Source: Deltaproteobacteria bacterium
GTDB lineage: Bacteria > Myxococcota_C > UBA6777
NCBI GenBank assembly: GCA_002731275.1
Contig: PCBK01000053.1
Location: forward strand, 36,275 to 100,274
DNA: 64,000 nucleotides
Reading direction: 5' to 3'
Of the stretch, positions 292-25,042 are shown one piece after another. Position 1 is the first letter of the stretch. Every line of letters begins with the position of its first letter. A program made the position numbers and the translations under genes. The notes beneath the pieces are model-generated. The model worked only from the letters and a program-made list of their open reading frames with translations. It searched no databases and was not told where the DNA came from.

Positions 292-768
292 GTGATATAT
301 TTGGAGGACAATATTCTGTGGAGATTGTTGAGGAGATGTTTTCAGATGGTGGAAGAGCTCATACCAGACAATATAATCGTTTTGCCAGTTCCGGACTTTG
401 ACTTTCTTGACAATAACCAAGGACGCCGTGTCTGGAAGTTATCTTTTGAAAAGGAAGTCAATGAGGTCGCATTGACTTCTCTGACTCTTATCCTTGATGA
501 ATACACGATTGAAGGAGTCCATTTTCAATTTGCCATCGTAGATCCTCACGTCCTCCATTTAATTGTTTTGTCTGACGTTCACCCTGGAGCTTTATCCGTG
601 ACAGTGTCAACACTAAAAGTCCTTAGCCATGTGAACAAGGTATCACTTAATCTTACTCATATCGAAGATGTGGAGGTTGTATTGTGGGAAGGTCGTTTTG
701 TCGAGCCTCGCGATTTTGTCGAAAGTGATCCATCATCGCTTCATGAACTGCCGAAATACTCAAAGTGA
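292..768 (+). CDS. hypothetical protein (GTG start), AT-rich codon usage
   Basis: ORF track 292..768; no recognisable motif; tightly followed by S1-domain ORF, same strand. Confidence 0.3.
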   Translation: MIYLEDNILWRLLRRCFQMVEELIPDNIIVLPVPDFDFLDNNQGRRVWKLSFEKEVNEVALTSLTLILDEYTIEGVHFQFAIVDPHVLHLIVLSDVHPGALSVTVSTLKVLSHVNKVSLNLTHIEDVEVVLWEGRFVEPRDFVESDPSSLHELPKYSK

Positions 769-786
769 AAGGTTTTGGAGCGCTTG

Positions 787-2635: not shown

Positions 2636-2690
2636 CATTGTTGTGGTCATCCTCTATCATCAATTCGTTTGTGGGGTTCTTTTTCTATGT

Positions 2691-2908
2691 GGGCTGGCAG
2701 CCCACACCCGCTCGGGGTTTCCACCCCGAACCCCACAATGCTCACGCATTGTCTGTTTTGCGCCTTCGGCGCGGGTTCTTTGATGAACATGCTAGGAAAT
2801 TTTTTCAAACAAGCGATTCTACGGAGAGGAAGCACCTTTTAAGTGGTGTTTTTGTTTGAACATATCCAAGCCTGTTCCCTTTTGCAAACATCTCTTTTTA
2901 CCGACCTC
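2691..2908 (+). repeat. Copy B of structured intergenic repeat (composite: core 2691-2788, ~70 bp insertion, tail 2861-2908)
   Basis: Core GGGGTTTCCACCCC / CAATGCTCACGCATTG / GCGCCTTCGGCGC hairpins; tail ATATCCAAGCCYGTTCCCTTTTGCAAACATC matches 4318-4363. Confidence 0.7.
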
Positions 2909-2976
2909 TTTTTTGACAAGATCTTGTGGGCCTGTTCTTTTGTGGCATTCTTGTAGCTTGAAAAGGAGGTGTCCGA

Positions 2977-4116
2977 ATGACCCAAAGCCCCCAAAATGAG
3001 ATTGTTTTCTACAACGAGTTGCTTTCGGAGATCAAGGCACGCATTCAACAGGGGCAGATACGTGCTGTGCTTTCAGCCAATGCAGAGCTGTTGATGACCT
3101 ACTGGGATATCGGCCGGATGCTTCATCTACGCCAACAAGAAGAGGGTTGGGGTGCAGGTGTCATTCCCAAGCTCTCCAAGGATTTACGCAATGATCTTCC
3201 TGAGATGAAAGGATTTTCTGAACGCAATCTTGGGCGAATGGTTCGCTTTTATCGCGAGTACCCAGGACTCTCTGCAATTTTGCCACAGGCTGTGACAAAA
3301 TTAGGAGCAGGCAAAGAAACAGACGCAGAAGAAGAGGTGACAACACCAATATTATCTTCTCCCGACTGGCTGAGGTTGGTGTTTCGTGTGAGCTGGACGC
3401 ACAACATTTTGTTGATTCAGAAGCTCAAGGAGCTTGATCTGCGATGTTGGTACTTGGAGCAGACGATTGCCAATGGTTGGGGGCGTGACACGCTCACAGC
3501 GATGATCAAGAGCAAAGCACACGAACGTCAGGGTAGCGGTGTGAGTAACTTTGATGAGCGTTTACCTTCGCGGCAATCGGAGTTTGCACAACAACTTCTG
3601 AAAGATCCGTACATTTTTGACTTTCTGACATTGGAGGAGCCCTTTCGCGAACAGGAATTGGAAGCGGGTTTGGTCGCACACTTGGAGACATTCCTTCTTG
3701 AGCTTGGTGCGGGCTTTGCGTTTGTAGGACGTCAGTATCATGTGGAGGTTGGGGACAATGACTTCTACATCGACTTGCTCTTTTATCACTTGCGGCTTCG
3801 CTGTTTTGTGGTTGTTGAGTTGAAGAAGGGGGAGTTTAAGCCTGAGTATGCGGGGAAACTGAACTTTTATTGCAACGTGGTGGATGACAAGCTCAAGCAC
3901 GAAACAGATGAGCCAACAATCGGTTTGCTCTTGTGTCAAGGCAAGGACAGGATTCTTGCTGAGTATTCTTTGCGAGGAATCCAGAAGCCTATTGGTATTG
4001 CGGATTACGAATTGACACAGGCGCTGCCTCAAGAACTCAAGTCGAGTTTACCGACAGTTGAAGAAATCGAGGCAGAGTTGGTGGGGGAGCTTGATGGTGA
4101 CGAAGGAACAGAATGA
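2977..4116 (+). CDS. DUF1016 / YhcG-family PD-(D/E)XK nuclease-domain protein
   Basis: N-terminal YWDIGRML...GVIPKLSKDL...KGFSERNLGRMVRFYREYP signature and C-terminal VVELKKGEF (D..ELK) PDDEXK-like motif; RBS AAGGAGG before ATG. Confidence 0.85.
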   Translation: MTQSPQNEIVFYNELLSEIKARIQQGQIRAVLSANAELLMTYWDIGRMLHLRQQEEGWGAGVIPKLSKDLRNDLPEMKGFSERNLGRMVRFYREYPGLSAILPQAVTKLGAGKETDAEEEVTTPILSSPDWLRLVFRVSWTHNILLIQKLKELDLRCWYLEQTIANGWGRDTLTAMIKSKAHERQGSGVSNFDERLPSRQSEFAQQLLKDPYIFDFLTLEEPFREQELEAGLVAHLETFLLELGAGFAFVGRQYHVEVGDNDFYIDLLFYHLRLRCFVVVELKKGEFKPEYAGKLNFYCNVVDDKLKHETDEPTIGLLLCQGKDRILAEYSLRGIQKPIGIADYELTQALPQELKSSLPTVEEIEAELVGELDGDEGTE

Positions 4117-4186
4117 ATAGACTCTATGTGTTTGAGTCCTCTTTGCGAGAACATACTTGGGTATTTGTTTCATCGAGAACGAGGGA

Positions 4187-4241
4187 GGTAGAGCATCAGC
4201 TTCCAAGCTGAGGGTCGCGAGCTCGAATCCCGTTTCCCGCT
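4187..4241 (+). other. tRNA-Trp(CCA)-like 3' fragment (D-stem 3' side, anticodon arm, imperfect T-arm); not a functional tRNA
   Basis: GGTAGAGCA-TCAGC-TTCCAAG-GCTGA anticodon stem-loop with CCA anticodon; no 5' acceptor/D-stem partner upstream; T-arm has a mismatch. Confidence 0.3.
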
Positions 4242-4242
4242 T

Positions 4243-4363
4243 GGGGTTTTCACCCCGTACCCCACAATGCGTTGCATTGTCTGTTTTGCGCCTTCGGCGC
4301 GGGTTCTTTGATGAAGATATCCAAGCCCGTTCCCTTTTGCAAACATCCCTTTTTACCGGCCTC
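4243..4363 (+). repeat. Copy C of structured intergenic repeat (core + tail contiguous)
   Basis: GGGGTTTTCACCCC, CAATGCGTTGCATTG, GCGCCTTCGGCGC hairpins then ATATCCAAGCCCGTTCCCTTTTGCAAACATCC. Confidence 0.7.
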
Positions 4364-4485
4364 ATCAAATCCCTCTAAGGAAACGTTCAGAATTTCCGCT
4401 GAGGAAATTCTCACCAAGAAAACCGAAGGTTTTCAAGGGGGATGCAACGCCCTGCGTTGCAAGGGGGATGGAGTGCCCTGCGTTG

Positions 4486-4956
4486 TTAGGATTTTGGACC
4501 CCAGATGTCAAATCCGCTGACACATCCACCTGAGATGTTGAACAAGATCCCGTGTTGGTCATAGCTCCACCATCCGGATGATGCGTACTTTTTGTCGCTA
4601 GGATATTGAGAAGAAGGTTCGCCATAGGCTGATTCCAACTGTTTGTGCGTCGCACCTTCCCGGATGCCTCGGTCGGTGACTGCTGGGATCCTTCCTTCTA
4701 GAAAAATGATTCCTAACACCTCATCCTGGAACACAAGCTTGAAGCCGTCGTAAATGTGGTAGATATCGTCGGAGTATTTAGTGATCTTTGAAGGTTTGCC
4801 AAAGATGGCGTGCGCCTGTTCGATGCTGCTGCCAAGAGGCAAACCCTCGAAGCCATGGCCTGAGATAGACAGCTCTTCTTTGTTGAGATACCGCTGGCGT
4901 AACTGCTCCGAAGTGCTCTCGACCATTCGAGCGAGAGAGGGATCGTCTTTTGACAC
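4486..4956 (-). CDS. hypothetical protein, immediately downstream of macro-domain gene
   Basis: ORF track; 59 bp after macro gene on same strand; no recognisable motif. Confidence 0.4.
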   Translation of the reverse strand: MSKDDPSLARMVESTSEQLRQRYLNKEELSISGHGFEGLPLGSSIEQAHAIFGKPSKITKYSDDIYHIYDGFKLVFQDEVLGIIFLEGRIPAVTDRGIREGATHKQLESAYGEPSSQYPSDKKYASSGWWSYDQHGILFNISGGCVSGFDIWGPKS

Positions 4957-5015
4957 AGCTTCCTCCTGTACCGTGAGAGTGAGTTGATGTAACGTATATG
5001 CTCTGGGTTAAGGGG

Positions 5016-5618
5016 TCAAGACGACTTTTGTTGAAGAGCCTGGAGCCTTATATTCTCAGATACATTTGCCTCAAGGAATGCTCGGCGCATCTGCCTAGCC
5101 GCTTCTTTGTATGGAATACCGCCTGTTCCTGTGCCCAATCCCGGACACCCGATACCTGTGATCACATGTGCGTTGGTTTGATTGAACTGATAGACTGCCT
5201 TCAACATCGCCTTCATCGCGAGGTAAGCGTTTTGTGTTTCCTTCACTGGACCAGGAATTCTCATCGTCGGAGCCACCACCAAGTACTCAATCCTCTCACT
5301 GTACGTTTCGATGACAAAAGCCGAACCAACAGGTAACTCTCCTCCGTGATCTTGCTTGATTTGTTGTTTTACCCGCTCTTCAATTTGTTGCCCAAACGAG
5401 TAAACATACACTTGATCGATCCCACCATCCATCCATCCATACGAATTGGCTGGGCTTACAACCGCGTTGATGTTCTCCAATTGCATGATGTCTTTGTCTG
5501 AAATCTCGACGCCTTTGACCTCTGAAAAGGCTTCTTTGAATGCTTTGTATAGACCAAATTGTCGAGCAGTCAGAATGAGTGATGGGTGTGATATTGTGTC
5601 CATGTGTTCCCCTGACAA
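5016..5618 (-). CDS. macro-domain protein (ADP-ribose binding/processing family)
   Basis: INAVVSPANSYGWMDGGID and ITGIGCPGLGTGTGGIP motifs matching macro-domain N..N-GG-D and GIG-C-G glycine-rich loops. Confidence 0.65.
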   Translation of the reverse strand: MSGEHMDTISHPSLILTARQFGLYKAFKEAFSEVKGVEISDKDIMQLENINAVVSPANSYGWMDGGIDQVYVYSFGQQIEERVKQQIKQDHGGELPVGSAFVIETYSERIEYLVVAPTMRIPGPVKETQNAYLAMKAMLKAVYQFNQTNAHVITGIGCPGLGTGTGGIPYKEAARQMRRAFLEANVSENIRLQALQQKSS

Positions 5619-8316: not shown

Positions 8317-8359
8317 ACCGTCGCTCTGCTTACCACTGGCCTTCCATATATACGGACAA

Positions 8360-8640
8360 GTTTCCACTTGCAGGGAGCAGGACGAGTTTCCACTCGCAGG
8401 GAGCAGGGCGAGTTGCCACTCGCAGGGAGCAGGGCGAGTTTCCACTCGCAGGGAGCAGGGCGAGTTTCCACTCGCAGGGAGCAGGGCGAGTTGCCACTCG
8501 CCCTTACGGCTGCCGCGCTCTGCTTGGCATTGGCCTCGCACATACGGACAAGTTGGCACTTGCAGGGAGCAGGGCGAGTTGCCACTCGCCCTTACGACTG
8601 CCGCGCTCTGCTTGGCACTGGCTGCCGCGCTCTGCTTGGC
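8360..8640. repeat. non-coding tandem minisatellite, 26-bp unit GTTTCCACTCGCAGGGAGCAGGGCGA x5-6 plus degenerate longer units
   Basis: Directly abutting units without spacers; downstream of anti-sigma stop. Confidence 0.8.
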
Positions 8641-8651
8641 ATAGTGGGCTC

Positions 8652-8741
8652 GCTGCCCACACCCGCCTGGGGTTTGTTCAACCCCAGACCCCATGATGCT
8701 TACGCATCATTTATGTTGCGCCTTCGGCGCTTATTTTTTCC
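8652..8741 (+). repeat. Copy D (diverged) of structured intergenic repeat; ends in terminator-like GCGCCTTCGGCGC + TTATTTTTTCC
   Basis: Hairpin 2 carries compensatory changes (ATGATGC-TTAC-GCATCAT vs CAATGC-TCAC-GCATTG) preserving pairing; hairpin 3 identical. Confidence 0.65.
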
Positions 8742-10669: not shown

Positions 10670-11923
10670 CTATTTGATGAGTCTGAATGTTTTGGCGCCT
10701 TGCATCTTCGTGAAGCGACGTGTTGCGCCTTTCATGTTGGCGTAGGAGAGGTTGGTTTTGTGGAGTTTCGCGAATTGGAGTTTCGCGTTTCTCAGGTCAG
10801 CCCTCACAAAGCTCGCGCCGTGGCATCGAACAAATCTCATATTTGCGCCTCGCAAGGAAGCCCCATCAAAGCGTGTCTTTTGACATCGGACGTTGACCAA
10901 TTTTGTGCCAACGAGACGGGCGGAGGTTAGGTTCGCGCCTTGGAGTTTTGCGTAGGAGAGGTCTGTCTTGTTGAAGTTCGCGCCTTTGAGGTTTGCGTCT
11001 TGGAGTTTGACGTATTTGAGATCCATGTTGGAGAGGTTGGCACCGGCGAGATTGATCGCGACTTTGGGGTGTTTGAGTCTCCAGGCATTCCAAGTGTTGA
11101 CGCCTTTTCTGAGGAGTCGGAGCTGTCTTGGGTTGTACGAGGCTTTCTGGCGAGCACGGATCGCTCTCAGCGTGCGACCTCTTTTGATACGTAATACGCC
11201 TGTGTTTCTCCTCTTCATACGTCCGATACGAAGGACACGTCCTGTTTTGAGTGTGCGTGTGTTGGATGTGCGCTTGACCATGTACATCCTGGCACCTGTC
11301 AGGTTGCTTTTGGTCGGCTTGACCCCACTCATATCGGCATAAGAGAAGTTGGCGTTCTGGAGCTTCGCGAAGTGGATCTTGGCACCTCGCAGATCCGCTC
11401 TCACAAAGATCGCTTTTTGGCACCGAATAAACGTCAATTGGGCACCTTTAAGTGATGCGCCTCGGAAGTTCGCCCTCTCGCACCAGATGTGGGACATCTT
11501 TGTGTTGTGAAGTGTGGCGGCTTTGAGTGATGTTTTGTAGAGTTGGGCGCCCCACATGTCAGCGTTGCTCAGGTTGGCGCTGTCGAGGCGTGCATTTTGG
11601 AAGCGCACGTGTTTGAGCTTTGCGCGCTTCATATTGGCACCACGAAGGTCAGCACCTCGCAAATCCGCAAGTGTGAGCTTTGCGCCTGAGAGGTTGGCCC
11701 CACGTAGATTCATCTTCGCGAGTGTTGCAGAGCTCAGGTCAATGCGAGCCTTTGGATGACTCGCTCTCCATGCGTTCCACGCACTGACACCCTTTTTGAG
11801 GGTGCGTAGTTGTGTACCGCGATAGGCTGAGGCGTCTTCTGCGTACAAACCTGTCATGGCCAATGCTGCGAGTAATGCGGAATGAACGATCTGTTTCTTC
11901 ATGGGTTCTCCTTTGTGTGTCAT
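10670..11923 (-). CDS. secreted pentapeptide-repeat protein, two repeat modules separated by an Arg/Lys-rich linker
   Basis: Signal peptide MKKQIVHSALLAALAMTGLYA; dozens of A(N/D)L(S/R)GA pentapeptides. Confidence 0.85.
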   Translation of the reverse strand: MTHKGEPMKKQIVHSALLAALAMTGLYAEDASAYRGTQLRTLKKGVSAWNAWRASHPKARIDLSSATLAKMNLRGANLSGAKLTLADLRGADLRGANMKRAKLKHVRFQNARLDSANLSNADMWGAQLYKTSLKAATLHNTKMSHIWCERANFRGASLKGAQLTFIRCQKAIFVRADLRGAKIHFAKLQNANFSYADMSGVKPTKSNLTGARMYMVKRTSNTRTLKTGRVLRIGRMKRRNTGVLRIKRGRTLRAIRARQKASYNPRQLRLLRKGVNTWNAWRLKHPKVAINLAGANLSNMDLKYVKLQDANLKGANFNKTDLSYAKLQGANLTSARLVGTKLVNVRCQKTRFDGASLRGANMRFVRCHGASFVRADLRNAKLQFAKLHKTNLSYANMKGATRRFTKMQGAKTFRLIK

Positions 11924-12233: not shown

Positions 12234-12668
12234 CTCTATCAATCGTCCTCTCACGAAGTAAGCGCATGAGTATGATGTTGCATTTTCGGTAGGGTTGGGC
12301 ATTGTTGTTCGATTTTTGATGTTACATTTTTTCCGTAGGGTCGGGCCTTGTGTCCGACCTTGATGTTGTATTTGTTCGGTAGGGTCGGGCCTTGTGTCCG
12401 ATCTCAATGTTGCATTTGTTCGGTCGGATCGGGCCTTGTGTCCGATCTCAATGTTGCATTTGTTCGGTCGGATCGGGCATTGTTGTTCGATTTTTAATGT
12501 TGCATTTTCGGTAGGGTCGGGCATTGTTGTTCGATTTTTGATGTTACATTTTTTCGGTAGGGTCGGGCCTTGTGTCCGACCTCGATGTTGTATTTGTTCG
12601 GTCGGGTCGGGCCTTGTGTCCGACCTCGATGTTGTATGTCCTTTTGGCGAGAGAACCACTTACGCTCG
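12234..12668 (+). mobile_element. MITE-like element: ~20-bp terminal inverted repeats flanking an internally amplified ~50-bp tandem array (~9 units)
   Basis: TIR-like ends CAATCGTCCTCTCACGAA ... TTGGCGAGAGAACCACTTACG; internal unit GATGTTGCATTTGTTCGGTCGGATCGGGCCTTGTGTCCGATCTCAAT repeated; single-unit inverted copy at 24927-25042. Confidence 0.55.
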
Positions 12669-13394: not shown

Positions 13395-15941
13395 ATGGGA
13401 AAACAAGAGAAGCGCGATCTGGTATTGGCACCTGGTACATACGCTTATATGCAAGACGAAACAACCGGTGCGATCAAGACCTTTGTCGGTCCTTGTGTGA
13501 TCAACCAGACCGCGCAAGAAGTGCCCGTTCAGTACATTGCAAAGGACGGACTCTTCAAACGTTGCAGTCGCCTCGAAGAGGCCGCCTGTAAATCCCCCAT
13601 CGCTGTCGAAGGGTTCTATCTTGTACTCAAGAATCCGGTGTTACAGGATGAACTTCACCCCGATGTCGGTAGTGCAGGAAAAATCTCTCCTACACTGCAA
13701 GTTGGGCGGAAGATCAATATCCCTGGTCCCTGTATGTTCGCGTTGTGGCCTGGGCAAGACGCACAAGTGGTGCGTGGTCATAACCTTCGTTCCAATCAAT
13801 ACCTGCTCGTAAGGGTATATAACGAAGAGGAAGCGCGAAGTAACTGGGAAAAAGCTGTGATGAAGCCAGCCTCTGGCCCCGAAAGCGAAGCGGGCGAGAC
13901 GATGGCGACCGCACCTGCACCCGTGGACCTCACTGTGGGAAAAGAGCTCGTTATTAAAGGCACAGAGGTCTCTTTTTATATCCCACCCACAGGTATGAGC
14001 GTGATTCCCGAAGGTGTAGACTCCAGTCGAAAACCAATATATGTTCGCGACGCCCTGACACTCGAACGGTTGGAGTACTGTATTCTCGTCGATGAAGACG
14101 GAAACAAGCGATACGAACGAGGACCACAAGTTGTTTTCCCCAAACCTACAGAGACTTTTGTCATCCGCAAAGGATTTCAAAAGTTCCGTGCCATTGAGTT
14201 AAATGAAAATCAGGGCCTGCATATCAAGGTCATCGCACCTTACTTCGATGAGACCACTCAGACAGCGTACAAAGAGGGTGATGAATTGTTCGTCACAGGA
14301 AAAGAGACCGCGATCTATTTTCCACGCGAAGAACACTCTCTGATCTCCTACGACGGGAAATCAAAACATTTCGCCACAGCCATTCTCGCTGGAGAAGCAC
14401 GCTATATGATGGATCGGATTACCGGTGAGGTCGAGACCGTTGAGGGACCTGCGATGTTGTTGCCTGATCCAAGACACCAAGTGATCGTGAGACGTGTCCT
14501 CTCGGACAAACAAGTCACACTCTGGTATCCCGATAATGACGAAGCGTTCGAATACAACAAACATCTTCGTCAGATGCTTGGACATACCCCCACGACACGC
14601 TCTGGTGTCATCAGCGAAGGCGACTATACACGCGGTCTCCGCAGACAGAAAAAAAAGAAGTCCTCCCAGGGACAGCCTGCCGGTCAAATGGAACACTCTA
14701 TCATCGGTGAACAAGAGTTGATCGCCGACGAGTTTTCACGTGCGTCATCCTATACACAACCTCGTACTGTGATCCTGGATAATAAATTCCAGGGCGTCCC
14801 AGACATCGAAGTATGGACCGGATATGCGGTCCAGGTGATCGCCAAAGATGGGACGAGACGTGTCGTCGAAGGGCCCGCGCAGCTGTTGTTAGCTTATAAC
14901 GAAACCCTGGAAGCGCTACGGTTCTCCACTGGGTGTCCAAAAACACCCAACTCTCTCAAGGAGGCCGTCTTTTTACGTACCAAGAGCAACAAGGTGCGAG
15001 ACTGTGTCGAAGTCCGCACGCTTGACCACGTCCCCGTCGCCATCGAGCTGGAGTATAGCCTCCACTTTGAAGGCGACTCCACACGCTGGTTCTCCATCGA
15101 TAACCCCATCCAGCACCTGTGTGACCACACCAGGACGTTGCTCAAACGCGCCGTCAAAGAGGTCTCTGTCGAGGCATTCAGCGCACAATCCACCGGGCTT
15201 TTACAGGACATCCTCCTCGGCACACTCGACGACAAACAACGTCGCGCTGGCCTGCGCTTCGAACAAAATGGCATGTTTGTCAGTGAAGTCGATGTCCTCT
15301 CCGTCCGTATCCTCGACGAGAGCATCCAAAAAGTGCTGTCCCAATTCCAAAAGAAGACCGCACGCTACAGTATCGAGCAACTCGTCGCACAACGCGAACT
15401 CGAAAACACACGCGCACTTGAGCTCATCGAACAAGACAGCGCTGCCGCCAGACAAGAGACACAGCTTCGTATCCTCGCGCTCGAAGAGCAGCTGCGACAG
15501 CATCGACAAGAGGTCGCACTTCACGAGGTCCAACGTGCGCAAACACTCGAACAGGCCAAACAGGAGCAAAAACGCGAAGAGGCGCTGCTCAAACAAAAGG
15601 TCACCGAGATCGAGAACCAAACCGAACAGCTTCTGCACGCTGCGTTGATGGAACAAAAGGCCGAAGAGTTGCGCCTGGAGAAGGAAAAACTCGCGGCACA
15701 GACAGCGTCCATTGTCGAACAATCCAACGCCATCAGTCCACACCTCACGATGGCTCTCGAACGCCTCGCCGACGAAAAACTCCTGAGCGCGATGGCCAAC
15801 GGATTTGGTGAGTTTGCCGCCGCAAAAGGTGTCGGCTTGCTCGAAACAGCCAAACAATTCTTCGACTTCCTGCCTGAGCACAAGCTCCAAATCCTCCACC
15901 ACCAACACACCCCTCAACATCACGAAGAGAGCGAAGGGTAA
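13395..15941 (+). CDS. major vault protein (MVP) homolog
   Basis: 848 aa; N-terminal repeats resembling MVP repeat domains (EYCILVDEDGNKRYERGPQVVFPKPTETF; GDELFVTGKETAIYFPREEHSLI), shoulder-like segment, ~180-aa C-terminal coiled coil like the vault cap-helix. Confidence 0.7.
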   Translation: MGKQEKRDLVLAPGTYAYMQDETTGAIKTFVGPCVINQTAQEVPVQYIAKDGLFKRCSRLEEAACKSPIAVEGFYLVLKNPVLQDELHPDVGSAGKISPTLQVGRKINIPGPCMFALWPGQDAQVVRGHNLRSNQYLLVRVYNEEEARSNWEKAVMKPASGPESEAGETMATAPAPVDLTVGKELVIKGTEVSFYIPPTGMSVIPEGVDSSRKPIYVRDALTLERLEYCILVDEDGNKRYERGPQVVFPKPTETFVIRKGFQKFRAIELNENQGLHIKVIAPYFDETTQTAYKEGDELFVTGKETAIYFPREEHSLISYDGKSKHFATAILAGEARYMMDRITGEVETVEGPAMLLPDPRHQVIVRRVLSDKQVTLWYPDNDEAFEYNKHLRQMLGHTPTTRSGVISEGDYTRGLRRQKKKKSSQGQPAGQMEHSIIGEQELIADEFSRASSYTQPRTVILDNKFQGVPDIEVWTGYAVQVIAKDGTRRVVEGPAQLLLAYNETLEALRFSTGCPKTPNSLKEAVFLRTKSNKVRDCVEVRTLDHVPVAIELEYSLHFEGDSTRWFSIDNPIQHLCDHTRTLLKRAVKEVSVEAFSAQSTGLLQDILLGTLDDKQRRAGLRFEQNGMFVSEVDVLSVRILDESIQKVLSQFQKKTARYSIEQLVAQRELENTRALELIEQDSAAARQETQLRILALEEQLRQHRQEVALHEVQRAQTLEQAKQEQKREEALLKQKVTEIENQTEQLLHAALMEQKAEELRLEKEKLAAQTASIVEQSNAISPHLTMALERLADEKLLSAMANGFGEFAAAKGVGLLETAKQFFDFLPEHKLQILHHQHTPQHHEESEG

Positions 15942-16030
15942 GGCTGAGCAAATTCGCCTTTGATTCATCCTCTCTGTGTGCTATCTTTTGATCCTGATGG
16001 TCAGTTGGTTGGTCTCAATCATCAAGGCGG

Positions 16031-17428
16031 ATGGTGAAGATGGAAAAGCACATTGCGACACTGCGAGAGCTCTTCTCATTGGCCACGAGGGGAACGAAGA
16101 GCGCTTTTGCAAAGGGTGGATTTTGGTTGGAGACCGCTCCCACACATTGGAAGGACGACTTCTGCGCGTTTCTCAGACGCGCACGTCGCGAAGATCCTAC
16201 CCATTACCACGATGTCCTTGTCCCCTATTGCGAACAACATTTCCCACAGCTCCCACCCGACGCCCAAGAACTAAAAGTCCTCGACTCTCTCGACTCTTTA
16301 AAACAGTGGGTTGAGTTGGCTCCTTTTGGCTATTATCATCTGCGTCTGTCCGACGAGAAGACCCTCAAAGAACCTCTTCAGTGGTTGAAACCATTGTCCC
16401 GTGTCCGGACTCTTAGCCTTGGCTTCAGCCCCTCGACGCGTTCACTCGCGGGGGTGATTTCTTGTGGGTATCTTCAACATCTCCAACATCTTCACTTGAA
16501 CGGCTATCGGATGGACTCTGGGAGCTTACGGCACGTGATCCGGGCTCTTCCTCTCTACACATTGCGTAGTCTGCACATCAAAAACGTCAAGCTCCTCAAG
16601 CGCGATCTTCTGTTTCTCGCGAAGGCTGAGACACTGCAGGGACTTCAGTATCTTTGGTTGGACAACGCGCAAAATCTGGAGCTGCTTGGTTCGTCCAAAA
16701 CACTGGGTGCGCTTCGTTTTCTTGGGTTTGAACACACCGTTGAACGTGCTGTCGTCGATGCCTTCGCGCGCTCTTCTTGTCTGCGCCATCTACAAGGGAT
16801 CTGCCTACGCCACGTGACGCCGGCTGCATTGCGTGCGCTCGTCGATCCCCATTTGTTCCCAGAGCTGCAAGCGTTGCTCTTTGCGTCTCACTCTCTCAAC
16901 AATCACCATCTCGAAGCCATCGCCAATACATCGAGTCATGTGCTGCGTTGTTTGTACTTTCACGGCGATGGTGTGCAGAGCCAGATCGACGATGAAGGGG
17001 TCAAACGTCTCGCCTCTTCACCTGTGCTCGAAGGTCTCGAAGGCCTGTATGTTCTCGAAGAAAGATTGGATAATGAAGGTGTCGAATATCTCGCACATTC
17101 TGCGTTTCTCTCTAACTTGCGTGTGCTACAGCTTGGGGGGCGCTTTCGGGAACGAGCGCTTGAGCAGATCGCACAGACGACGACGCTCTCGCAATTACAA
17201 GCGCTGTGGTTGTTCCCGACGCGGGAGCTGCTCTCTGATAGTTATATGGCGCTCGCTTGCTCGAAGACATTGCCCAAGTCCGTGCGTCGGGATATGTTGT
17301 CATATGTCAAGAGGAAGCGAGTGGTCGAGAGGGCACGTGCTTTAGGCGTGGAGGTCACGCCAAGGTTGGACAAGCGCGCCATTCTCTCTCGTATTTGGCA
17401 GGCCCAAGAGGAAGAAGGGCAAAAGTAG
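16031..17428 (+). CDS. leucine-rich repeat protein (RNI-like LRRs), 90 bp downstream of MVP homolog
   Basis: Repeated LxxLxLxxxxLxxxxLxxL units through most of 465 aa. Confidence 0.6.
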   Translation: MVKMEKHIATLRELFSLATRGTKSAFAKGGFWLETAPTHWKDDFCAFLRRARREDPTHYHDVLVPYCEQHFPQLPPDAQELKVLDSLDSLKQWVELAPFGYYHLRLSDEKTLKEPLQWLKPLSRVRTLSLGFSPSTRSLAGVISCGYLQHLQHLHLNGYRMDSGSLRHVIRALPLYTLRSLHIKNVKLLKRDLLFLAKAETLQGLQYLWLDNAQNLELLGSSKTLGALRFLGFEHTVERAVVDAFARSSCLRHLQGICLRHVTPAALRALVDPHLFPELQALLFASHSLNNHHLEAIANTSSHVLRCLYFHGDGVQSQIDDEGVKRLASSPVLEGLEGLYVLEERLDNEGVEYLAHSAFLSNLRVLQLGGRFRERALEQIAQTTTLSQLQALWLFPTRELLSDSYMALACSKTLPKSVRRDMLSYVKRKRVVERARALGVEVTPRLDKRAILSRIWQAQEEEGQK

Positions 17429-17558
17429 GGTTCTTTTGTGCAATATCTGCGTGTCTCCGAGACTGGAAGAAAATAATCGTGGATGTTTGGTGTTGGTTAT
17501 GTTTTCCTAAGTGCATCTGTCACGATAAGGCCGCCAGAGGCAAAAAAGGAGAACATGT

Positions 17559-20500
17559 ATGCGGATGGGTCCAACAACTCTACGAGGGCGCAGACCTCTA
17601 CTTTTTGTATCGTCGTTGGTTGTATTCTTTATCGGTGTGCTCGCCTTCAGGGCGGGGGAGAGTCGGGCGAAGCCTTCACAGCCAGGTGGGATCGTCGTCT
17701 CCGTTCCCCACAGGTGGGTTGATCTGACGAAGTCTCTAGACAAAGAGGCCCGACTTCGTTCTGTTCGTCAGTTGTTTCGTGTGCAGCGCTCTGTTTCGGA
17801 AACGATCAAGCGCGTCAGAGGCTCTCTGTCACTGCAAAAGGCGTTGATTGAGCTCGTGGTGGACTCCAAACAGACCGAAAAAGACAAGGGATATGCGCTT
17901 CATCTGCTCAACAAGGCTGGGACCTACCTGAAGATCCCCGTCTCCTCACTTGTCTCTTGTCTTCGTAGTCCACGTGGCAACGTCAGGATGAACGCCGCGA
18001 GTGTTCTCGGACGACTTGGAGAAGACGCGCTCAGTGCGATCCCTGCGCTCGCGAAGCAGCTTCGTGTTGAGAAAGGGGTCATCATTCGTAAGGAGCTCCT
18101 GCGAGCGATACGGCTGATCGAGCGATATGCCTCTATCGCGTTTCATCCCCTCGTTCGTGGAAAGCAGGATACAGCTGCGACCATTCGGATTTTTGCAGAT
18201 GTCATCAAAAAAGATCCTGACACGCAGATGAAGACCCTCGCGGTCAAAGCTCTTGGGGAGCTTGACGCGCAGTGGTGGGATCACGTTCAACCTGTCTTTT
18301 TGCGGGCATTCAAGCATAAGGAACCGGACGTGCGTCGCGAGGTTCTTCGGCAGATGCGGCGTTATTTTGCCTCTCACAAGCTACTCGTGAAGGAGGCGTT
18401 GAGACTCGCGGAGCGTGACCCGAAAGAGTCCGTAGAGCGCGAAGCGATCAAGACACTCGGTTACTATCCACAATACGCCAAGCAGATCATCCCGTTGTTT
18501 CGACGGCTCTTTATGCAGGGGAATGACAAGGTTCGACAAAGTATTCTCTCTGCGAGCGATGTGCTCGGTGCAAAAGGGCGCGAGGTAATGTCATTTGCGC
18601 TGCGTGTGTACAAGGAGCGTCCTGACACAGAGAGATTGCGATTGCTTCGGTGGTTGCACGTGTTCTCCCCTGGAACACTACCCGACGCAAAAGACTGGCG
18701 CCCCTACCTGACCTCCCAACAGCTTGTCCTGCCGCTCTTTACACTTTGGAAAAAGCACAAAACGCACAGTCAAATGTTGATCCCGCTGTTGGTCTCTGTG
18801 ATTCGACATGCTTACACACAAGCTGGACTCATCGCGCTTTCATCGTGGTTGAGTGAGGTGGAGACGACAAAATATGCCGATGTGTTGTTGAAGGATATCC
18901 TCAGCCACACAAAAGGTGGGGATCGGTTGTACTTACAGCCTGCTGTGTACAAACTCTTACGTCGACTTGTCCGCGATATGAAGAGCCAAAAGGCGCTCTC
19001 CTTGTTGAAGTCCTTCATCTCCAAAAAATACGACCTTCGTTCATCTGTGTTGTTTGATCTGCTCGGTGAGCTACAGGGCTCACATGATGGCGCGGCGAAG
19101 GTGCTCGTCGAGCATCTTCGACGCAGTTGGGGGCGACCACACGAGAAGAGGCTCCACAACGCGCTTGTCAGACTCGGTAAGCAGACACCTGCGGTCGTTT
19201 TTACGCGGCTGCTCAAGGGCCTGAAGGACGTCCCGACAAAGTACCGCCAACGCTACCTGTCATCACTCGCGAAGGTCGCGACAGACAAGAAGCAATACCA
19301 AGTCAAACTTCCACACAATGCGTTCTCCGTGTTGGAGAGAAAACAGCTCTCGGGGATGTGTGCGCAGCTCGTCGTGATGAAGAAAAGTCTGGAGGATGAT
19401 CTTTCCGGGATGGCGTGTCTTCGTGCGATTGGGGAGCTCAAACGAGTAAAGGAGGAGTTGTCGACGTCGTTACATGAGCGTAATCGCAAGTCGACACTTG
19501 CGTTCTTGCGGATGTTGCGGCTGGGGAAACAGGAGGCGTCGTGGGCGTTGCCGCTCGTGTTGTGGGCGCTAAAGAAAAATTACAACACAAGGCTCAGGAA
19601 ACAGGCGGTCCGGACTTTGGGATACTTGGAGGCGGTGAACAAAGCCGTACTTGATGCGATTCATCCGATCTCGTATTCGACTTACAAAAAAGTGCTACGT
19701 AGGGCGCTACGTCGGATGGCTGGTCATCCGAAAGGGGTAGAGGTGCTCATCGCACGTCTTCGTGTGGAGACGAAGGTGAGTATGATCAACAACATCATCG
19801 TTGGGCTTCGTTGGCACGCGAAGGGCAATTTGGCGATCCAAGAGGTGTTGAAGGAGCTGCTCTCTCACCGCAGTAAAAGTGTCCGTGACTATGCTGTGTG
19901 GGCGCTAAAGTACGCTGGTCTTGATGCAGATCTGGCGATGGACATTGGGTTGACGCTCGTACAACGTGATCGTGCTTCGTGGGTGCGTCAGGACGCGGCG
20001 AGTCTGCTTGGTCGTCAAAGTCCGGCGTTTATGACAAAGCGACGTGAACGGGCGAGTCTGTTGGCGAGGTTGTTTGCCAAAGAGCGCGATATCAAGGTGA
20101 AGAAGCGTCTGTATTGGTCGCTTCATCGTCTTCGGAATTACGTCGAGCGAGCTGATCTGAGGGCGTACAGAGAGGTCATGCACAAGGCAAAGGACAAGCA
20201 ACTCTTGTTAAACGCTTTGCGGACACTCGGTAGAAAGGGGGGATACTGGAAGCAGACGCTGCCTGCGATGCGTCGTATGCAAGGGCGCGCGTTGGTCTTG
20301 GATGTCGAGCAGAAACGTCGCGACACAATCGCTCGTTGGTCTGGAAAGGTCGATCTGTGGACGCTTGAACAGCTCGCGGAGCAGCTGCGTACAAAGCGCA
20401 CAAAGAAGACGTTCTCCAAAAAGCTCCTCAAACGTATTGGTCACATGCGTTCGGACTCCTTGGTCGCCAACCACGCGGTCATGCATGTGCTGCGTTTTGG

Positions 20501-21671
20501 ATCGAGGGCGCAACGCTTGAACGCGCTGGACGCGGGATATCACCTTGGGTTTCGATTGAGACGATACGCGCCGGTCCTGTTCAAGATGGTGCAACAAGAG
20601 AAAGACCCTCACATTCGTCGCTTTTTGGCGTGGCGTTTTGCTGAGAGCAGTGGCACAAAACATTCTTACATCAAGCCATTGCGAGCGCTGTTACGTCGGG
20701 AAAAGGAGCCCAAAGTCTTGGTCCCTCTGCTGTGGTCGCTTGGTAAGCAGGGCGCGCGCGCTGCCGAGGCTGTCGATGACATCTTGTATGTCCTCTCCAC
20801 ACAGAGATATTGGATGACCCGATACGAGTGTGTCTGGGCGCTTGGACGTATCGGAGCAAAAGCCTCGAAGGTCTATCCTGTTTTGTTGCGCCTGCTCACC
20901 AAGAACCACAAGCTCCCTGTGCGCAGGGAGGCAGCCCATGTGTTGTCAAAGCTCAAGCTCACGCCCAAACAGGTCAACAAAGTGGGCAGCAAACTCGTGC
21001 GTGTGCTCTCCTATGAGAAGCACTATGACGTGCGACTTCGGATCTTGTCGACGTTGCTCACGCTCAAGTGGAAGCCGATGTTTTTCCGCATTGTGATGAG
21101 GGGTCATCTGCTCACCGAACCTGATCGGGGGCTTCGTTGGGTGATTCGGTATCTTCTGGTCTTTTTGGGCGGAAAGGATGTGGCGCTACACAAGCTCTTA
21201 TGTGAGCAGGCTGTCGCAGCAAAGCGTCCTGAAAATCGATGGATCGCGATATGGTTGTTGGGGATGTTCAAGGACAAAGCGCACGCACAAAAGAGCGCGA
21301 AGGTGCTCTCCGATGTCTTGCGAAAGGAGCGACTCCGGTACATCCGAAGAGAGGCTGCGCGTGTCTTAGGGGATTTGACGTCTGCGTCGAAAATCGCGAC
21401 CGCTGCTCTCGTGAAGGGGCTATGGGATCCTGCTGAGACTGTTCGTATGATGGTGTTGCGTCGTTTGCGTGAACACGGGAAGCAGGCGTTGTTTGCGTTG
21501 CCGTTGATCAAGGCATTCAAACGCGACCATTGGTACGGAGTGCGTCGTCAAGCTGACCTTACCTGGAAGGCATTGTCTGTACTTCAGCCGGCGACAAAAC
21601 CTGCGAGTCGCCCGACGACAAAACCTGCAAGCCGTCCAACGACAAAACCTGCAAGTCGACCTGTAAAGTGA
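17559..21671 (+). CDS. giant HEAT/PBS-lyase-like repeat protein with N-terminal membrane anchor and C-terminal PATKPASRPT x3 tail
   Basis: N-terminal hydrophobic helix (LLFVSSLVVFFIGVLAF); >15 HEAT-like units with VRREAxxxLxxL motifs. Confidence 0.7.
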   Translation: MRMGPTTLRGRRPLLFVSSLVVFFIGVLAFRAGESRAKPSQPGGIVVSVPHRWVDLTKSLDKEARLRSVRQLFRVQRSVSETIKRVRGSLSLQKALIELVVDSKQTEKDKGYALHLLNKAGTYLKIPVSSLVSCLRSPRGNVRMNAASVLGRLGEDALSAIPALAKQLRVEKGVIIRKELLRAIRLIERYASIAFHPLVRGKQDTAATIRIFADVIKKDPDTQMKTLAVKALGELDAQWWDHVQPVFLRAFKHKEPDVRREVLRQMRRYFASHKLLVKEALRLAERDPKESVEREAIKTLGYYPQYAKQIIPLFRRLFMQGNDKVRQSILSASDVLGAKGREVMSFALRVYKERPDTERLRLLRWLHVFSPGTLPDAKDWRPYLTSQQLVLPLFTLWKKHKTHSQMLIPLLVSVIRHAYTQAGLIALSSWLSEVETTKYADVLLKDILSHTKGGDRLYLQPAVYKLLRRLVRDMKSQKALSLLKSFISKKYDLRSSVLFDLLGELQGSHDGAAKVLVEHLRRSWGRPHEKRLHNALVRLGKQTPAVVFTRLLKGLKDVPTKYRQRYLSSLAKVATDKKQYQVKLPHNAFSVLERKQLSGMCAQLVVMKKSLEDDLSGMACLRAIGELKRVKEELSTSLHERNRKSTLAFLRMLRLGKQEASWALPLVLWALKKNYNTRLRKQAVRTLGYLEAVNKAVLDAIHPISYSTYKKVLRRALRRMAGHPKGVEVLIARLRVETKVSMINNIIVGLRWHAKGNLAIQEVLKELLSHRSKSVRDYAVWALKYAGLDADLAMDIGLTLVQRDRASWVRQDAASLLGRQSPAFMTKRRERASLLARLFAKERDIKVKKRLYWSLHRLRNYVERADLRAYREVMHKAKDKQLLLNALRTLGRKGGYWKQTLPAMRRMQGRALVLDVEQKRRDTIARWSGKVDLWTLEQLAEQLRTKRTKKTFSKKLLKRIGHMRSDSLVANHAVMHVLRFGSRAQRLNALDAGYHLGFRLRRYAPVLFKMVQQEKDPHIRRFLAWRFAESSGTKHSYIKPLRALLRREKEPKVLVPLLWSLGKQGARAAEAVDDILYVLSTQRYWMTRYECVWALGRIGAKASKVYPVLLRLLTKNHKLPVRREAAHVLSKLKLTPKQVNKVGSKLVRVLSYEKHYDVRLRILSTLLTLKWKPMFFRIVMRGHLLTEPDRGLRWVIRYLLVFLGGKDVALHKLLCEQAVAAKRPENRWIAIWLLGMFKDKAHAQKSAKVLSDVLRKERLRYIRREAARVLGDLTSASKIATAALVKGLWDPAETVRMMVLRRLREHGKQALFALPLIKAFKRDHWYGVRRQADLTWKALSVLQPATKPASRPTTKPASRPTTKPASRPVK

Positions 21672-21860
21672 GCGGTCAAGTGCAGGGGGGAAGGGGTCAT
21701 TTTCTAGGAGAGTGCCGCCAGCCATAGGAAAAAAACCACAAAAAAGTAACCCGATCTGTTCTCTGTGCAATATACCTATGTGGAAATAGAGATTGAATAC
21801 GATGGAGTCGCATGAAAAGAGGCTCTTGAGATGATCTGGTAGTCAAAAGGATATAAAGAT

Positions 21861-24743
21861 ATGCAGAAGAGAGTGATGTGTTTGGTGTGGATGGTGTTGT
21901 TGTTGACGATGTCGATCTTATCGGCATGTGGTCCGACGACATCTGGTCGTGAACAATCTTCCGAGTCCCACCAAGAGGCACACAAAGAGCTGAGCAAAGA
22001 AGCGGCTCCAGTGGACGCTGGAGAGGGGAGTGGGGGAGCGAAAGAGACGACGACACCTGATGCGCAGGGGCAGGAGGGCACGACACCAGAACAAGGTTGT
22101 CCAAACGCCTGTACGAATGAAGGTGATGAGCGATGTGACGGTCAAAAACGTCTGCTGTGTGTGAAGAAGCAAGGTTGCCTTACGTGGGAAGCCATCCAGG
22201 AGTGTCCAGACGGCACGACATGTCAGCCCAACGCTTGTGTCTCGACATGTAAAGGCGAGTGTTCGGAAGGGGATCGGATCTGTCAATCGGATCGTCCTAT
22301 GCTTTGTGTTGTCGTCGATGGTTGCCCTGTCTGGAAGGAAGAGAAGGCATGTGCACAAGGCGAAGTCTGCTCTGGTGGTCTCTGTACACAACAGTGTCAA
22401 TCGGAGTGTAGTCTTGGTGATATGCGATGTTTTGGACGCAACTCGTTATCTCATTGTGTGCGTGCACAGAACGGATGTTTGCAGTGGGGGACGCCAAAAA
22501 CCTGTAGTGATGGACACATCTGTGATGGGAATAAGTGTGTGCCTTCCTGTACGGATGTGTGTGTGCCTGGAGATAAGCAATGTACACAAGGCGGCGTGAG
22601 TCTTTGTGTGCGTGGGCAAGATGGTTGCGCTGTGTGGGGGAAGGCTTCGAGCTGTCCCACAGGTCAAACCTGTTCAGGTGGTGCCTGTACACAGAGCTGT
22701 CAGGATGTGTGTAAGGCGAATGAGACTCGCTGTTCTGGCCAAGCTGTCCAGACTTGTTTGCGACAGAGCAATGGTTGTTTGGATTGGGGACTTCCTGCCG
22801 CGTGTCCAACACAACGGACTTGTCAGGCTGGAAAGTGTGTGCTCTCATGTACCTCTACGTGTAAGAGTGGAGCTGTCCGATGTCTGGGGGATTTGATCCA
22901 GTCATGTGGCCTTCAAGCGAGTGGTTGTCTTGATTGGGCTGGTGCCAAAGCCTGCCCTGCTGGTGAGGCGTGTGTGAGCGGAGCCTGTAAGAAGGTCTGT
23001 CAACAAGTCTGCCAACAAGGTGATGTCCGTTGTGATGCCGTTGGTGTCAGCCGCTGCGTAAAAGATAGCGGTGGATGCTGGACGTGGGGAGCGAGCTCCG
23101 CGTGCGCACAAGGGAAGGTCTGTAAAGCAGGCGCTTGTGTTGACAAGACTGGCGCAGGGTATGGGGCAACGTGTACTGGGAACAGCGACTGTAAGAGCGG
23201 TTTTTGTTTGAAGACCTCGACGTCTTCGTTTTGTTCAAAGCTTTGCAGCTCCGACACGGATTGTGGCACAGGGAAAGTATGTCAGTCCACATCGATTCAA
23301 AACAAACTCCAACGTCTCTGTGTTGTCCCCGGTAGTATCGAAGCTTGTGCTGTGAACGGTGATTGTTCCGCGTACACCAGATGTGTCAACAAAACATGCG
23401 CTGTCAGTTGTTCTGAAAACCGCGACTGTTGGTCGTCTTACTACTGTGACAATGGGACATGCAAAGGGCTTGGTGCCAGCACGTGCTCCTCCAACAAGGA
23501 ATGTCCCGGTGGGTACTCCTGTAAGTCCGGAAAGTGCAAAACTTCGTGCTATTACGCCTCGGACTGTCAACCGACCTTTCATTGTGACAGCAGCAAACGG
23601 CAGTGTTATCCCTTACCTCCGGGACAATGCTACTACGATGTAAATTGCCCTAACAACTTCGCATGTAAATCCAAGACGTGTTTGACGAGCTGTCAGGAGA
23701 ACAGAGATTGCCACCAAGGTTACTATTGCAACGCTGGTGCTTGCAAAAAGTTGAGCGCTGATACGTGTACCTCCAACAGTGATTGTCCTGGTGGATACTC
23801 CTGTAAATCTGGTAAGTGCAAAACTTCGTGTTATTATGCTTCGGACTGTCAGCCCAAACACCACTGCGACAGTAGCCGAAGACAGTGTTATCCATTGAAG
23901 CCGGGACAATGTTACTATGATGTCAATTGCCCTAACAACTTCGCGTGCAAGTCCAATGTCTGCCTGACGAGTTGTAAAGAGAACAGAGATTGCCACCAGG
24001 GGTACTACTGTGGCGCTGGTACCTGCAAAAAGTTGAGCGCTGATACATGCACCTCCAACAGTGATTGTCCCGGTGGGTACTCCTGTAAGTCCGGAAAGTG
24101 CAAGACCTCATGTTACTACGCTTCGGACTGCCAACCGACCTTTCATTGCAGCAGCAGCCGAAGACAGTGTTATCCCTTGAATCCAGGGCAATGCTACTAC
24201 GATGTGAATTGTCCCAACAACTTCGCATGTAAATCCAACGTATGTCTGACGAGTTGCAAAGAGAACAGGGATTGTTACCAGGGTTACTATTGCAGCGCTG
24301 GTGCCTGCAAAAAGTTGAGCGCCGATGTGTGTACATCCAACAGTGATTGTCCCGGTGGGTATTCTTGTAAGTCCGGAAAGTGCAAAACATCGTGCTACTA
24401 TGTCTCCGATTGCCAGCCGACCTTCCATTGCAGCAGCAGCCGAAGACAGTGTTATCCCTTGAATCCAGGGCAATGTTATTACGACGCGAATTGCCCCAAC
24501 AACTTCGCGTGTAAGTCCAATGTCTGCCTGACGAGTTGCAAAGAGAACAGGGATTGCCACCAGGGTTACTATTGTGGCGCGGGGACCTGCAAAAAGTTGA
24601 GCGCTGATGTGTGTACGTCCAGCAGTGATTGTCCCGGTGGATATGCCTGCAAGTCCGGAAAGTGCAAGACTTCGTGCTACTATGTCTCCGATTGTGAGTC
24701 ACCAGCCAAGTGCGACGGGAGTCGCCGTCAATGCTATCAGTGA
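21861..24743 (+). CDS. lipoprotein with Cys-rich repeats: ~12 short C-x-G-x-C modules then five near-identical ~97-aa Cys-rich modules
   Basis: Lipoprotein signal MQKRVMCLVWMVLLLTMSILSAC; DNA-level ~291-bp tandem repeats 23400-24700. Confidence 0.75.
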   Translation: MQKRVMCLVWMVLLLTMSILSACGPTTSGREQSSESHQEAHKELSKEAAPVDAGEGSGGAKETTTPDAQGQEGTTPEQGCPNACTNEGDERCDGQKRLLCVKKQGCLTWEAIQECPDGTTCQPNACVSTCKGECSEGDRICQSDRPMLCVVVDGCPVWKEEKACAQGEVCSGGLCTQQCQSECSLGDMRCFGRNSLSHCVRAQNGCLQWGTPKTCSDGHICDGNKCVPSCTDVCVPGDKQCTQGGVSLCVRGQDGCAVWGKASSCPTGQTCSGGACTQSCQDVCKANETRCSGQAVQTCLRQSNGCLDWGLPAACPTQRTCQAGKCVLSCTSTCKSGAVRCLGDLIQSCGLQASGCLDWAGAKACPAGEACVSGACKKVCQQVCQQGDVRCDAVGVSRCVKDSGGCWTWGASSACAQGKVCKAGACVDKTGAGYGATCTGNSDCKSGFCLKTSTSSFCSKLCSSDTDCGTGKVCQSTSIQNKLQRLCVVPGSIEACAVNGDCSAYTRCVNKTCAVSCSENRDCWSSYYCDNGTCKGLGASTCSSNKECPGGYSCKSGKCKTSCYYASDCQPTFHCDSSKRQCYPLPPGQCYYDVNCPNNFACKSKTCLTSCQENRDCHQGYYCNAGACKKLSADTCTSNSDCPGGYSCKSGKCKTSCYYASDCQPKHHCDSSRRQCYPLKPGQCYYDVNCPNNFACKSNVCLTSCKENRDCHQGYYCGAGTCKKLSADTCTSNSDCPGGYSCKSGKCKTSCYYASDCQPTFHCSSSRRQCYPLNPGQCYYDVNCPNNFACKSNVCLTSCKENRDCYQGYYCSAGACKKLSADVCTSNSDCPGGYSCKSGKCKTSCYYVSDCQPTFHCSSSRRQCYPLNPGQCYYDANCPNNFACKSNVCLTSCKENRDCHQGYYCGAGTCKKLSADVCTSSSDCPGGYACKSGKCKTSCYYVSDCESPAKCDGSRRQCYQ

Positions 24744-24926
24744 GAGACATGTAAGGCTGTCGGATGGAAAAAAGCGAAGACAAGAGGGCAGTGGATGGGG
24801 CCTCAGGCAAGGCATGAGGAGAAGGCATGGCAGGGCCATGTCGACGACAAATCACAAAGCCTGTGGCTTCAGCAACAACCTTCTGTCTTCGTCTCATTTT
24901 CCGTATCCTTTTTTCCATCCGATGGC

Positions 24927-25042
24927 CTAAGTGGTCCTCTCGCGAAAAAGACATACAACATAGAGGTCGGACACAAGGCCCGACCCTACGGGGGAAATGC
25001 AATATCATGCTCATGCGCTTACTTCGCGAGAGGACCGCTTAG
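24927..25042 (-). mobile_element. Single-unit copy of the MITE-like element, inverted relative to 12234-12668
   Basis: Perfect-ish 20-bp TIRs CTAAGTGGTCCTCTCGCGAA / TTCGCGAGAGGACCGCTTAG around one 50-bp unit. Confidence 0.6.

Follow-up and report, generated by a model that had tools for sequence, protein, structure and literature searches.

The two non-coding repeats examined here, a tandem array (element A) and an inverted single-unit sequence (element B) within one 64,000-nucleotide stretch of DNA (the window), are very probably copies of a MITE, a non-autonomous transposable element, from an uncultured marine myxobacterium. The family to which they belong has a modular architecture, in which a 36-nt left arm, a number n of 44-nt units and a 36-nt right arm follow one another and the ends are 15-nt inverted repeats (TGGTCCTCTCGCGAA). 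Insertion duplicates a 5-bp target with the consensus CTWAG, copy number of the family is high, and the number of central units varies both between copies and between strains at a single locus. The source of the window is a marine metagenome population represented in Tara Oceans assemblies, with proteins deposited under the MAG labels "Deltaproteobacteria bacterium" and "Myxococcales bacterium". As a side observation, it encodes several Ser/Thr kinases and has a weak GltJ-like match, which are compatible with, and not specific for, Myxococcota. Coordinates of the features are collected in Table 1.

Table 1. Coordinates of the repeat features in the window, with strand and the analysis by which each was delimited.
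Feature	Position	Strand	Basis
Element A, left arm ("A module", 36 nt)	12238..12273	+	In-register dissection
Element A, head-to-tail array of eight 44-nt units	12274..12627	+	Tandem Repeats Finder, register listing
Unit 1, type a	12274-12317		
Unit 2, type b	12318-12361		
Unit 3, type b	12362-12405		
Unit 4, type b'	12406-12449		
Unit 5, 46-nt b'/a hybrid	12450-12495		
Unit 6, type a	12496-12539		
Unit 7, type b	12540-12583		
Unit 8, type b	12584-12627		
Element A, right arm ("C module", 36 nt)	12628..12663	+	In-register dissection, terminal inverted repeat probe, inverted match to B
Element B, intact single-unit copy, 116 nt including target duplications	24927..25042	-	Inverted-repeat analysis, in-register cut
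Element B, arm (36 nt)	25042-25007	-	
Element B, unit (44 nt)	25006-24963	-	
Element B, arm (36 nt)	24962-24927	-	
Element B, target-site duplication, left copy CTAAG	24927..24931	+	Empty site in L105, 5-mer direct-repeat statistics
Element B, target-site duplication, right copy CTTAG	25038..25042	+	Empty site in L105, 5-mer direct-repeat statistics
Element B, terminal inverted repeat TGGTCCTCTCGCGAA	24932..24946	+	Terminal inverted repeat scan, alignment of 23 copies
Element B, terminal inverted repeat, second arm TTCGCGAGAGGACCG	25023..25037	+	Terminal inverted repeat scan, alignment of 23 copies
Element B, GTAG-tagged hairpin core	24965..24989	-	GTAG at 24989-24986, GGTCGGGCCTTGTGTCCGACC at 24985-24965
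Type III, neighbouring different MITE-like repeat, ~178 nt	24749..24926	+	Terminal inverted repeats GGCYGTYGGATGGAAAAAAG / CTTTTTTCCATCCGAYGGCC, TWA flanks

Tandem Repeats Finder placed the array at 12274-12634 with a period of 44, 8.2 copies, 85% matches and a score of 416, and detected a higher-order period of 178 besides. Cut in register, element A extends from 12238 to 12663 and comprises eight units, all of 44 nt except one of 46 nt, between left and right arms of 36 nt each; the original prediction was right that an internal unit had been tandemly amplified, and its estimate of about nine units of about 50 bp is revised to eight of 44 nt. Each unit runs from GATGTTGYAT through a T/C-rich linker to GTAG (GTCG in three units) and then a hairpin. 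In b units the hairpin is GGTCGGGCCTTGTGTCCGACC or a GATC...GATC variant of it, and in a units it is GGTYGGGCATTGTTGTTCGA followed by TTTTT. The left arm, which has a decayed terminal inverted repeat (TIR; TCGTCCTCTCACGAA), matches the corresponding arm of B at 93%, and the right arm starts with a partial unit (GATGTTGTAT) and ends with a decayed TIR (TTGGCGAGAGAACCA) and then CTTAC. Over 82 nt the right end of A is 85% complementary to B. A 16-nt TIR probe found three mismatches in the left arm (ATCAATCGTCCTCTCACGAA, at 12242) and two in the right arm (TTGGCGAGAGAACCACTTAC). The array copy does lie in the opposite orientation to B, as proposed; its ends are decayed relatives of those of B and not the same. 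No recognisable target duplication was found at the ends of copy A. Open reading frames of 94-146 aa traverse the repeats, but they matched no family in a Pfam search, track the repeat period and are very unlikely to be genes, which agrees with the earlier statement that the element has no coding capacity. A CRISPR array was considered and rejected, as the 44-nt units abut without unique spacers. Four other full-length assemblies (L001-L003 and L111) have exactly the array sequence of the window, as does, up to the contig end within the right arm, the JGI contig L112; contigs L004 and L104 end within the array.

Element B matches both ends of array A in inverted orientation (blastn E = 1e-19 and 1e-12), as expected of the inverted single-unit copy predicted at this position, and is 94.8% identical to the consensus of the metagenome copies. 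Its arms are 95% complementary over 22 nt, the duplicated target included. The ends are indeed inverted repeats, but what had been described as near-perfect 20-bp TIRs is a 15-nt TIR, conserved across 23 aligned copies, together with a nearly palindromic duplicated target (CTAAG/CTTAG). Across 27 copies, the 5 nt outside the arm ends TGGTCC...GGACCA form perfect direct repeats in 11 against 2.5 expected from shuffled pairings, a number reached in none of 20,000 shuffles, and an inverted model for the same flanks showed no enrichment; the target-site duplications that the original prediction proposed to look for at copy ends are therefore present. Pairs that depart from the consensus CTWAG (ATAAG/ATAAG, GTAAG/GTAAG, TTTAC/TTTAC, CTAAC/CTAAC and CTTAA/CTTAA) are consistent with duplication of 5 bp and not with a longer TIR or with duplication of a 3-bp TWA. 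The 3-bp model was rejected since the outer non-consensus bases co-vary in direct orientation, which favours 5 bp. The remaining 16 copies are without a perfect duplication, and five of these have CTAAG...CTTAG or similar flanks that are readable as an extended palindrome.

An empty site for B occurs in a strain about 98% identical to that of the window (L105, ENA ERZ28505417), where the sequence is CCGATGGC-CTTAG-GCTAC. In that strain the flanks CCATCCGATGGC and GCTACTGC enclose a single CTTAG, and in the window the same flanks stand around CTAAG, 106 nt and CTTAG; the insertion is also carried by a UBA MAG contig (L107). Apart from one central W mismatch, B and the L105 site thus form a filled-site/empty-site pair, and B is an insertion for which strains are polymorphic. 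This mismatch recurs in five other copies and renders the ends perfectly palindromic.

The family is widely dispersed. A scan of metagenome contigs with the 21-nt core returned 96 stretches, giving 98 distinct contexts with the window's own included and duplicates removed, and only three pairs of metagenome loci were duplicates of the same site. Type I, which is the element first described, accounts for 53 of the 98 contexts. About 30 of its copies are full-length, with both arms and unrelated flanks, and the family is hence not confined to the two loci from which it was first recognised; single-unit copies are 87-97% identical to the 116-nt consensus. Type II, with 27 contexts, is a mosaic repeat of another kind, over 400 nt long, and only the core and a few bases on either side of it, GTAG tag included, are common to the two types. 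Other arrangements of the core make up about 14 contexts, and unrelated GC-rich matches a further three (four loci). Contigs with several loci, which are from related organisms, have 3-4 exact-core sites of all scaffold types per 100 kb. The window's own genome has three copies in about 81 kb, namely A, B and a decayed third copy some 7 kb past the right edge of the window, and most of the other copies belong to related organisms rather than to this genome. Dispersed copies, a 5-bp target duplication and an empty site in a related strain together bear out the original description of the element as MITE-like. The size and coding properties are also those of a MITE, with elements of 116-426 nt and no Pfam match in the reading frames over the repeats.

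Several observations on the distribution of these repeats may be added. The sole match in a core scan of genome contigs, among whose representatives the species is absent, was a Xanthomonas terminator hairpin that has no GTAG tag and is unrelated. A blastn search of a plasmid collection gave no match to the element. In viral contigs the left end (TIR and adjoining bases) was absent and the core matched twice, both times within the same single type I copy as in contig L096; the two contigs concerned (L108 3590-3715 and L109 1490-1615, IMG/VR contigs of 55 and 75 kb) have one type I copy at the same site as L096, and may represent either a prophage or a fragment of a related organism's chromosome that has been misclassified. 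At two loci (L059 822-1049 and L049 895-1122) a pair of type I elements adjoin one another head-to-tail with a single TTTAG 5-mer common to both, as expected if one had inserted into the duplicated target of the other. Type II loci are found in L007, L013 (for example at 41-530), L015, L018, L021, L028, L040, L048 and others. In these the identical GTAG hairpin lies between GTATATATCGG direct repeats, with a GGTCCCTCCTCTCGAAAGGSTTGAGAGGAGGGA hairpin adjacent, and additional units with another core occur in some copies.

Element B is itself adjoined by a different MITE-like repeat, type III, copies of which with 76-93% identity were found in L031 (solo), L076, L008, L098, L062 and L083. The right end of type III and its own TWA duplication constitute the CTWAG site entered by B. 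Both in the window and at no fewer than five other loci, a type I element is positioned exactly at a type III end, suggesting either nested MITEs or a type III end that is a preferred target. The TWA at both type III ends (24746-24748 and 24928-24930) reads TAA..TAA in the window and TTA..TTA in L105, and the left target copy of B (CTAAG) differs from the L105 empty site (CTTAG) at the central base, so that an A/T difference recurs in the middle of these near-palindromic junctions.

Element lengths are quantised, at 116 nt (at least 23 copies), 159-168 nt (five or six copies), 204, 336 and 426 nt, and fit 36 + 44n + 36 with n = 1, 2, 3, 6 or 8, these being lengths in short-read metagenome assemblies in which three contigs (L004, L104 and L112) stop inside the array or right arm. 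The ortholog of A in the strain with the empty site for B (L103, ERZ28505417) has three units (a a b) against eight in the window, at the same site and with the same decayed arms. The units of this shorter array have private substitutions, and it is therefore not a collapsed assembly of the window's array. The suggestion that such an array can change length, and that repeat number should be compared between strains, was thus well founded. Within the window, units 1-3 and 6-8 (12275-12412 and 12497-12634) are 95.7% identical, compared with about 85% for successive units overall, which is indicative of one 222-nt (five-unit) duplication and so of unequal recombination, not just single-unit slippage. 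Further length polymorphism was sought among the metagenome loci and none was found, all three duplicate locus pairs being identical. Arrays probably grow and shrink by replication slippage or by unequal recombination between the GATGTTGYAT repeats that bound each unit. The single-unit form already has this 10-mer on either side of the hairpin, 44 nt apart, such that a first unit duplication would be possible, and the 222-nt duplication in the window's array indicates that multi-unit events occur as well.

Both elements are intergenic. A lies in a 1.47-kb divergent region between a pentapeptide-repeat gene (10670-11923, - strand) and a major-vault-protein-like (MVP-like) gene (13395-15941; PF11978, PF17795), and B between the gene for a 960-aa Cys-rich repeat protein, which ends at 24743, and a beta-propeller gene that starts at 25146. 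The cluster at 13395-24743, bracketed by A and B, is headed by the MVP homologue (848 aa, with MVP shoulder and vault repeat domains), downstream of which are genes for a 465-aa protein, a 1370-aa HEAT-repeat protein and the 960-aa Cys-rich protein, the last with 282-nt tandem repeats. The window has other repeats as well. A 63-nt repeat occurs in four copies (1-63, 2719-2781, 4247-4309 and 8677-8739) and consists of a CACAATGC..GCATTGT palindrome and then a GCGCCTTCGGCGC hairpin; a 26-nt tandem repeat of 5.5 copies is at 8359-8501; and a 40-nt inverted pair (143-182 and 52933-52972) with a CCCCGAAGGGGTT hairpin also adjoins type II copies (L045). Two assemblies in which array A is identical, L001 and L002 (locus 1-5300, upstream of window position ~8700), have entirely different genes upstream of a DsbA-like gene, namely DUF1016, Macro, CsbD and an ECF sigma factor in one and a MalT-like regulator, DUF4386 and a CN hydrolase in the other. 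Small repeats of the window (the 63-nt, 26-nt and 40-nt families) bound this strain-variable region. Elsewhere, at 55648-59442 on the - strand, a 1264-aa reading frame is made up of about 16 repeats of 105-114 nt, which code for calcium-binding-like motifs, rich in Asp and Cys, of the thrombospondin type 3 kind.

The alternative that comes nearest to accounting for the data concerns the hairpin. The core GGTCGGGCCTTGTGTCCGACC forms a 6-8 bp hairpin with one G-T pair in the stem, which upholds the earlier view that the unit core is itself a hairpin, and with its tag the palindrome is GTAG + GGTCGG(GCCTTGTGT)CCGACC, each base of the tag being conserved in 92-96 of the 98 contexts. That the core is a GTAG-tagged REP-like module found in other scaffolds is an addition to the first account of this DNA. 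On a REP/BIME explanation, the GTAG hairpin would be the mobile or selected entity, spread by a RAYT, the array would be BIME-like, and the arms would be merely a favoured landing palindrome. The conserved tag and imperfect palindrome with its G-T pair would be accounted for, as would the identical core in a second, unrelated scaffold (type II) and in the other arrangements. By crude, ORF-based gene calls, elements occupy 19 convergent, 17 tandem and 3 divergent positions versus 49, 169 and 74 intergenic regions of each kind, usually 30-100 nt past the upstream gene in tandem regions, and this bias resembles that of GTAG REPs, for which convergent and co-directional gene pairs are the usual setting (PMC3733652); some REPs are also known to lie within long palindromes or to be repeated in tandem (PMC3733652). 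However, no RAYT was detected in 4,230 ORFs in about 810 kb around the 98 cores (phmmer with E. coli RayT and a search for the HUH...YxxxNP motif), a sample that a single-copy gene elsewhere would escape. The usual REP arrangement, moreover, is in inverted pairs, with head-to-tail arrangements a rare class for GTAG REPs (PMC3733652), whereas in this family the multi-unit arrangements are all head-to-tail and the cores of any one locus lie on a single strand. Finally, what is gained or lost at B is the entire element with both arms, together with a 5-bp duplication, as is characteristic of a DDE transposase and not of a Y1 (HUH) single-strand transposase. We consider the REP/BIME explanation unlikely, and since there were neither a RAYT nor inverted pairs we call the core REP-like in form and not a RAYT-mobilised REP. 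Under the preferred MITE interpretation, each unit contains a GTAG-tagged hairpin built like a REP, and the MITE is one of at least two scaffolds that bear the module. A bolder proposal is that the hairpin is an independent functional or mobile REP-type module riding at least two DDE-mobilised scaffolds (a REP-MITE hybrid), with the strain-variable array then acting as a length-dependent switch on the vault operon; this we regard as slightly more doubtful again.

Two further explanations were weighed and carry still less probability. The array could encode a structured RNA, whether an sRNA, a protein-sequestering hairpin-repeat RNA or stacked terminators or attenuators before the vault operon, with the dispersed copies as paralogous RNA genes. 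In its favour, folding predictions give very stable structures (-59.9 kcal/mol, z = -7.8), the a-type hairpins survive only by G-U pairs and are followed by TTTTT, weak terminator-like matches (given little weight) fall on the GTAG strand, and one compensatory path can be traced within the array, from GGTC..GACC through GGTC..GATC to GATC..GATC. Such stability, however, follows trivially from inverted repeats, and Rfam gave nothing at gathering score in the whole window, with only sub-threshold hairpin or terminator-like matches (sX14, SorX) to the array at E up to 10. Covariation was negligible: the RNAalifold covariation term was -0.38 kcal/mol for 23 copies, with any double change in 2 of 33 pairs, and among 144 core copies there were 13 compensated pairs against 112 mismatched (28 G-T, 34 A-C and 50 other). 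G-T and A-C mismatches thus had no strand asymmetry, the loop was conserved as much as the stem, and the orientation of elements relative to flanking genes was mixed (12 against 5). The RNA-gene explanation, which we judge very improbable, was set aside on the negligible covariation and the lack of G-T versus A-C strand asymmetry. The least probable explanation is a local, non-mobile duplication, in which two structured repeats flank the vault cluster, for example as ends of an invertible or once-mobile 12-kb segment. A and B are mutually inverted and do bracket the MVP-like, 465-aa, HEAT-repeat and Cys-rich genes, but dozens of other copies lie in unrelated flanking sequence, B by itself is absent from the related strain, L103 and L105 match the arrangement of the window wherever they cover it, and no assembly has the segment inverted; we give this possibility almost no credence. 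The MITE interpretation is accordingly retained, and the family is a real MITE with an internal hairpin minisatellite, of an ordinary known sort and not a new kind of system.

As to how the element moves, a DDE-type transposase acting in trans and making 5-bp staggered cuts would be the probable agent. No autonomous insertion sequence with these TIRs was found in the approximately 810 kb sampled, where TIR pairs occur only about 90-400 nt apart and no pair was more than 400 nt apart. One group of IS5/PIF-Harbinger elements has a C|TNA|G target with the same 3-bp/5-bp ambiguity (PMC4482050), and an enzyme of that kind may be a candidate mover, as a lead only. The likeness is to the NuwaII group of IS5/PIF-Harbinger (PHIS) elements, with its C-T-N-A-G target and its ambiguity between 3 bp and 5 bp (PMC4482050); the group differs in that non-consensus flanks in the present family favour a 5-bp duplication, and the likeness bears on the kind of transposase alone.

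By analogy, the closest counterpart among known systems is the pneumococcal BOX element, boxA-(boxB)n-boxC. BOX elements have a tandem middle module, and array length differs between strains (PMC3049150); in S. suis, one and the same boxB is found within two different terminal scaffolds (PMC3049150). BOX of S. pneumoniae and S. suis is, like the family described here, modular, non-coding and dispersed, with mutually complementary terminal modules and a central module of about 45 nt in variable tandem number, and with an array length that varies between strains at one locus; the two S. suis scaffolds with one boxB are comparable to types I and II with one core. In contrast, Croucher et al. found no clear target duplication for BOX, whereas the present family has a 5-bp duplication and an empty site. 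BOX also differs in belonging to another host phylum, and the central module here is a GTAG-tagged hairpin; the likeness proposed is one of analogy only.

Resemblance to GTAG REPs and BIMEs (Di Nocera et al. 2013; Nunvar et al. 2010) extends to GTAG at one end of an imperfect palindrome of 6-13 bp, a G-T pair in the stem, high copy number, an extragenic position mainly after genes and between convergent genes, and occurrence sometimes in longer palindromes and sometimes in tandem with flanking DNA. REPs are usually inverted pairs, whereas units here are single or head-to-tail with no RAYT found in about 810 kb, and movement here is that of a whole arm-bounded element with a 5-bp duplication, unlike that of REPs. 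Classical MITEs (Correia/NEMIS, RUP, ERIC, Nezha and Chunjie) are likewise small and non-coding, with 15-30 bp TIRs, a target duplication, many copies, positions next to genes and transcripts predicted to fold strongly. Most of these are of fixed length, in contrast to the internal minisatellite of 1-8 units and the REP-like module of the present family.

The family offers a sequence-level example, beyond the streptococci, of a modular MITE with a central hairpin unit that behaves as a minisatellite, and its target duplication, empty site and between-strain length change are all documented from metagenomes. It is useful as a strain-typing marker for an abundant uncultured marine myxobacterial lineage, and it explains contig breaks at these sites in the organism. 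Lastly, by tying hairpins of the GTAG-tagged, REP-like sort to elements bounded by TIRs, it has a bearing on the spread of REP-like modules.
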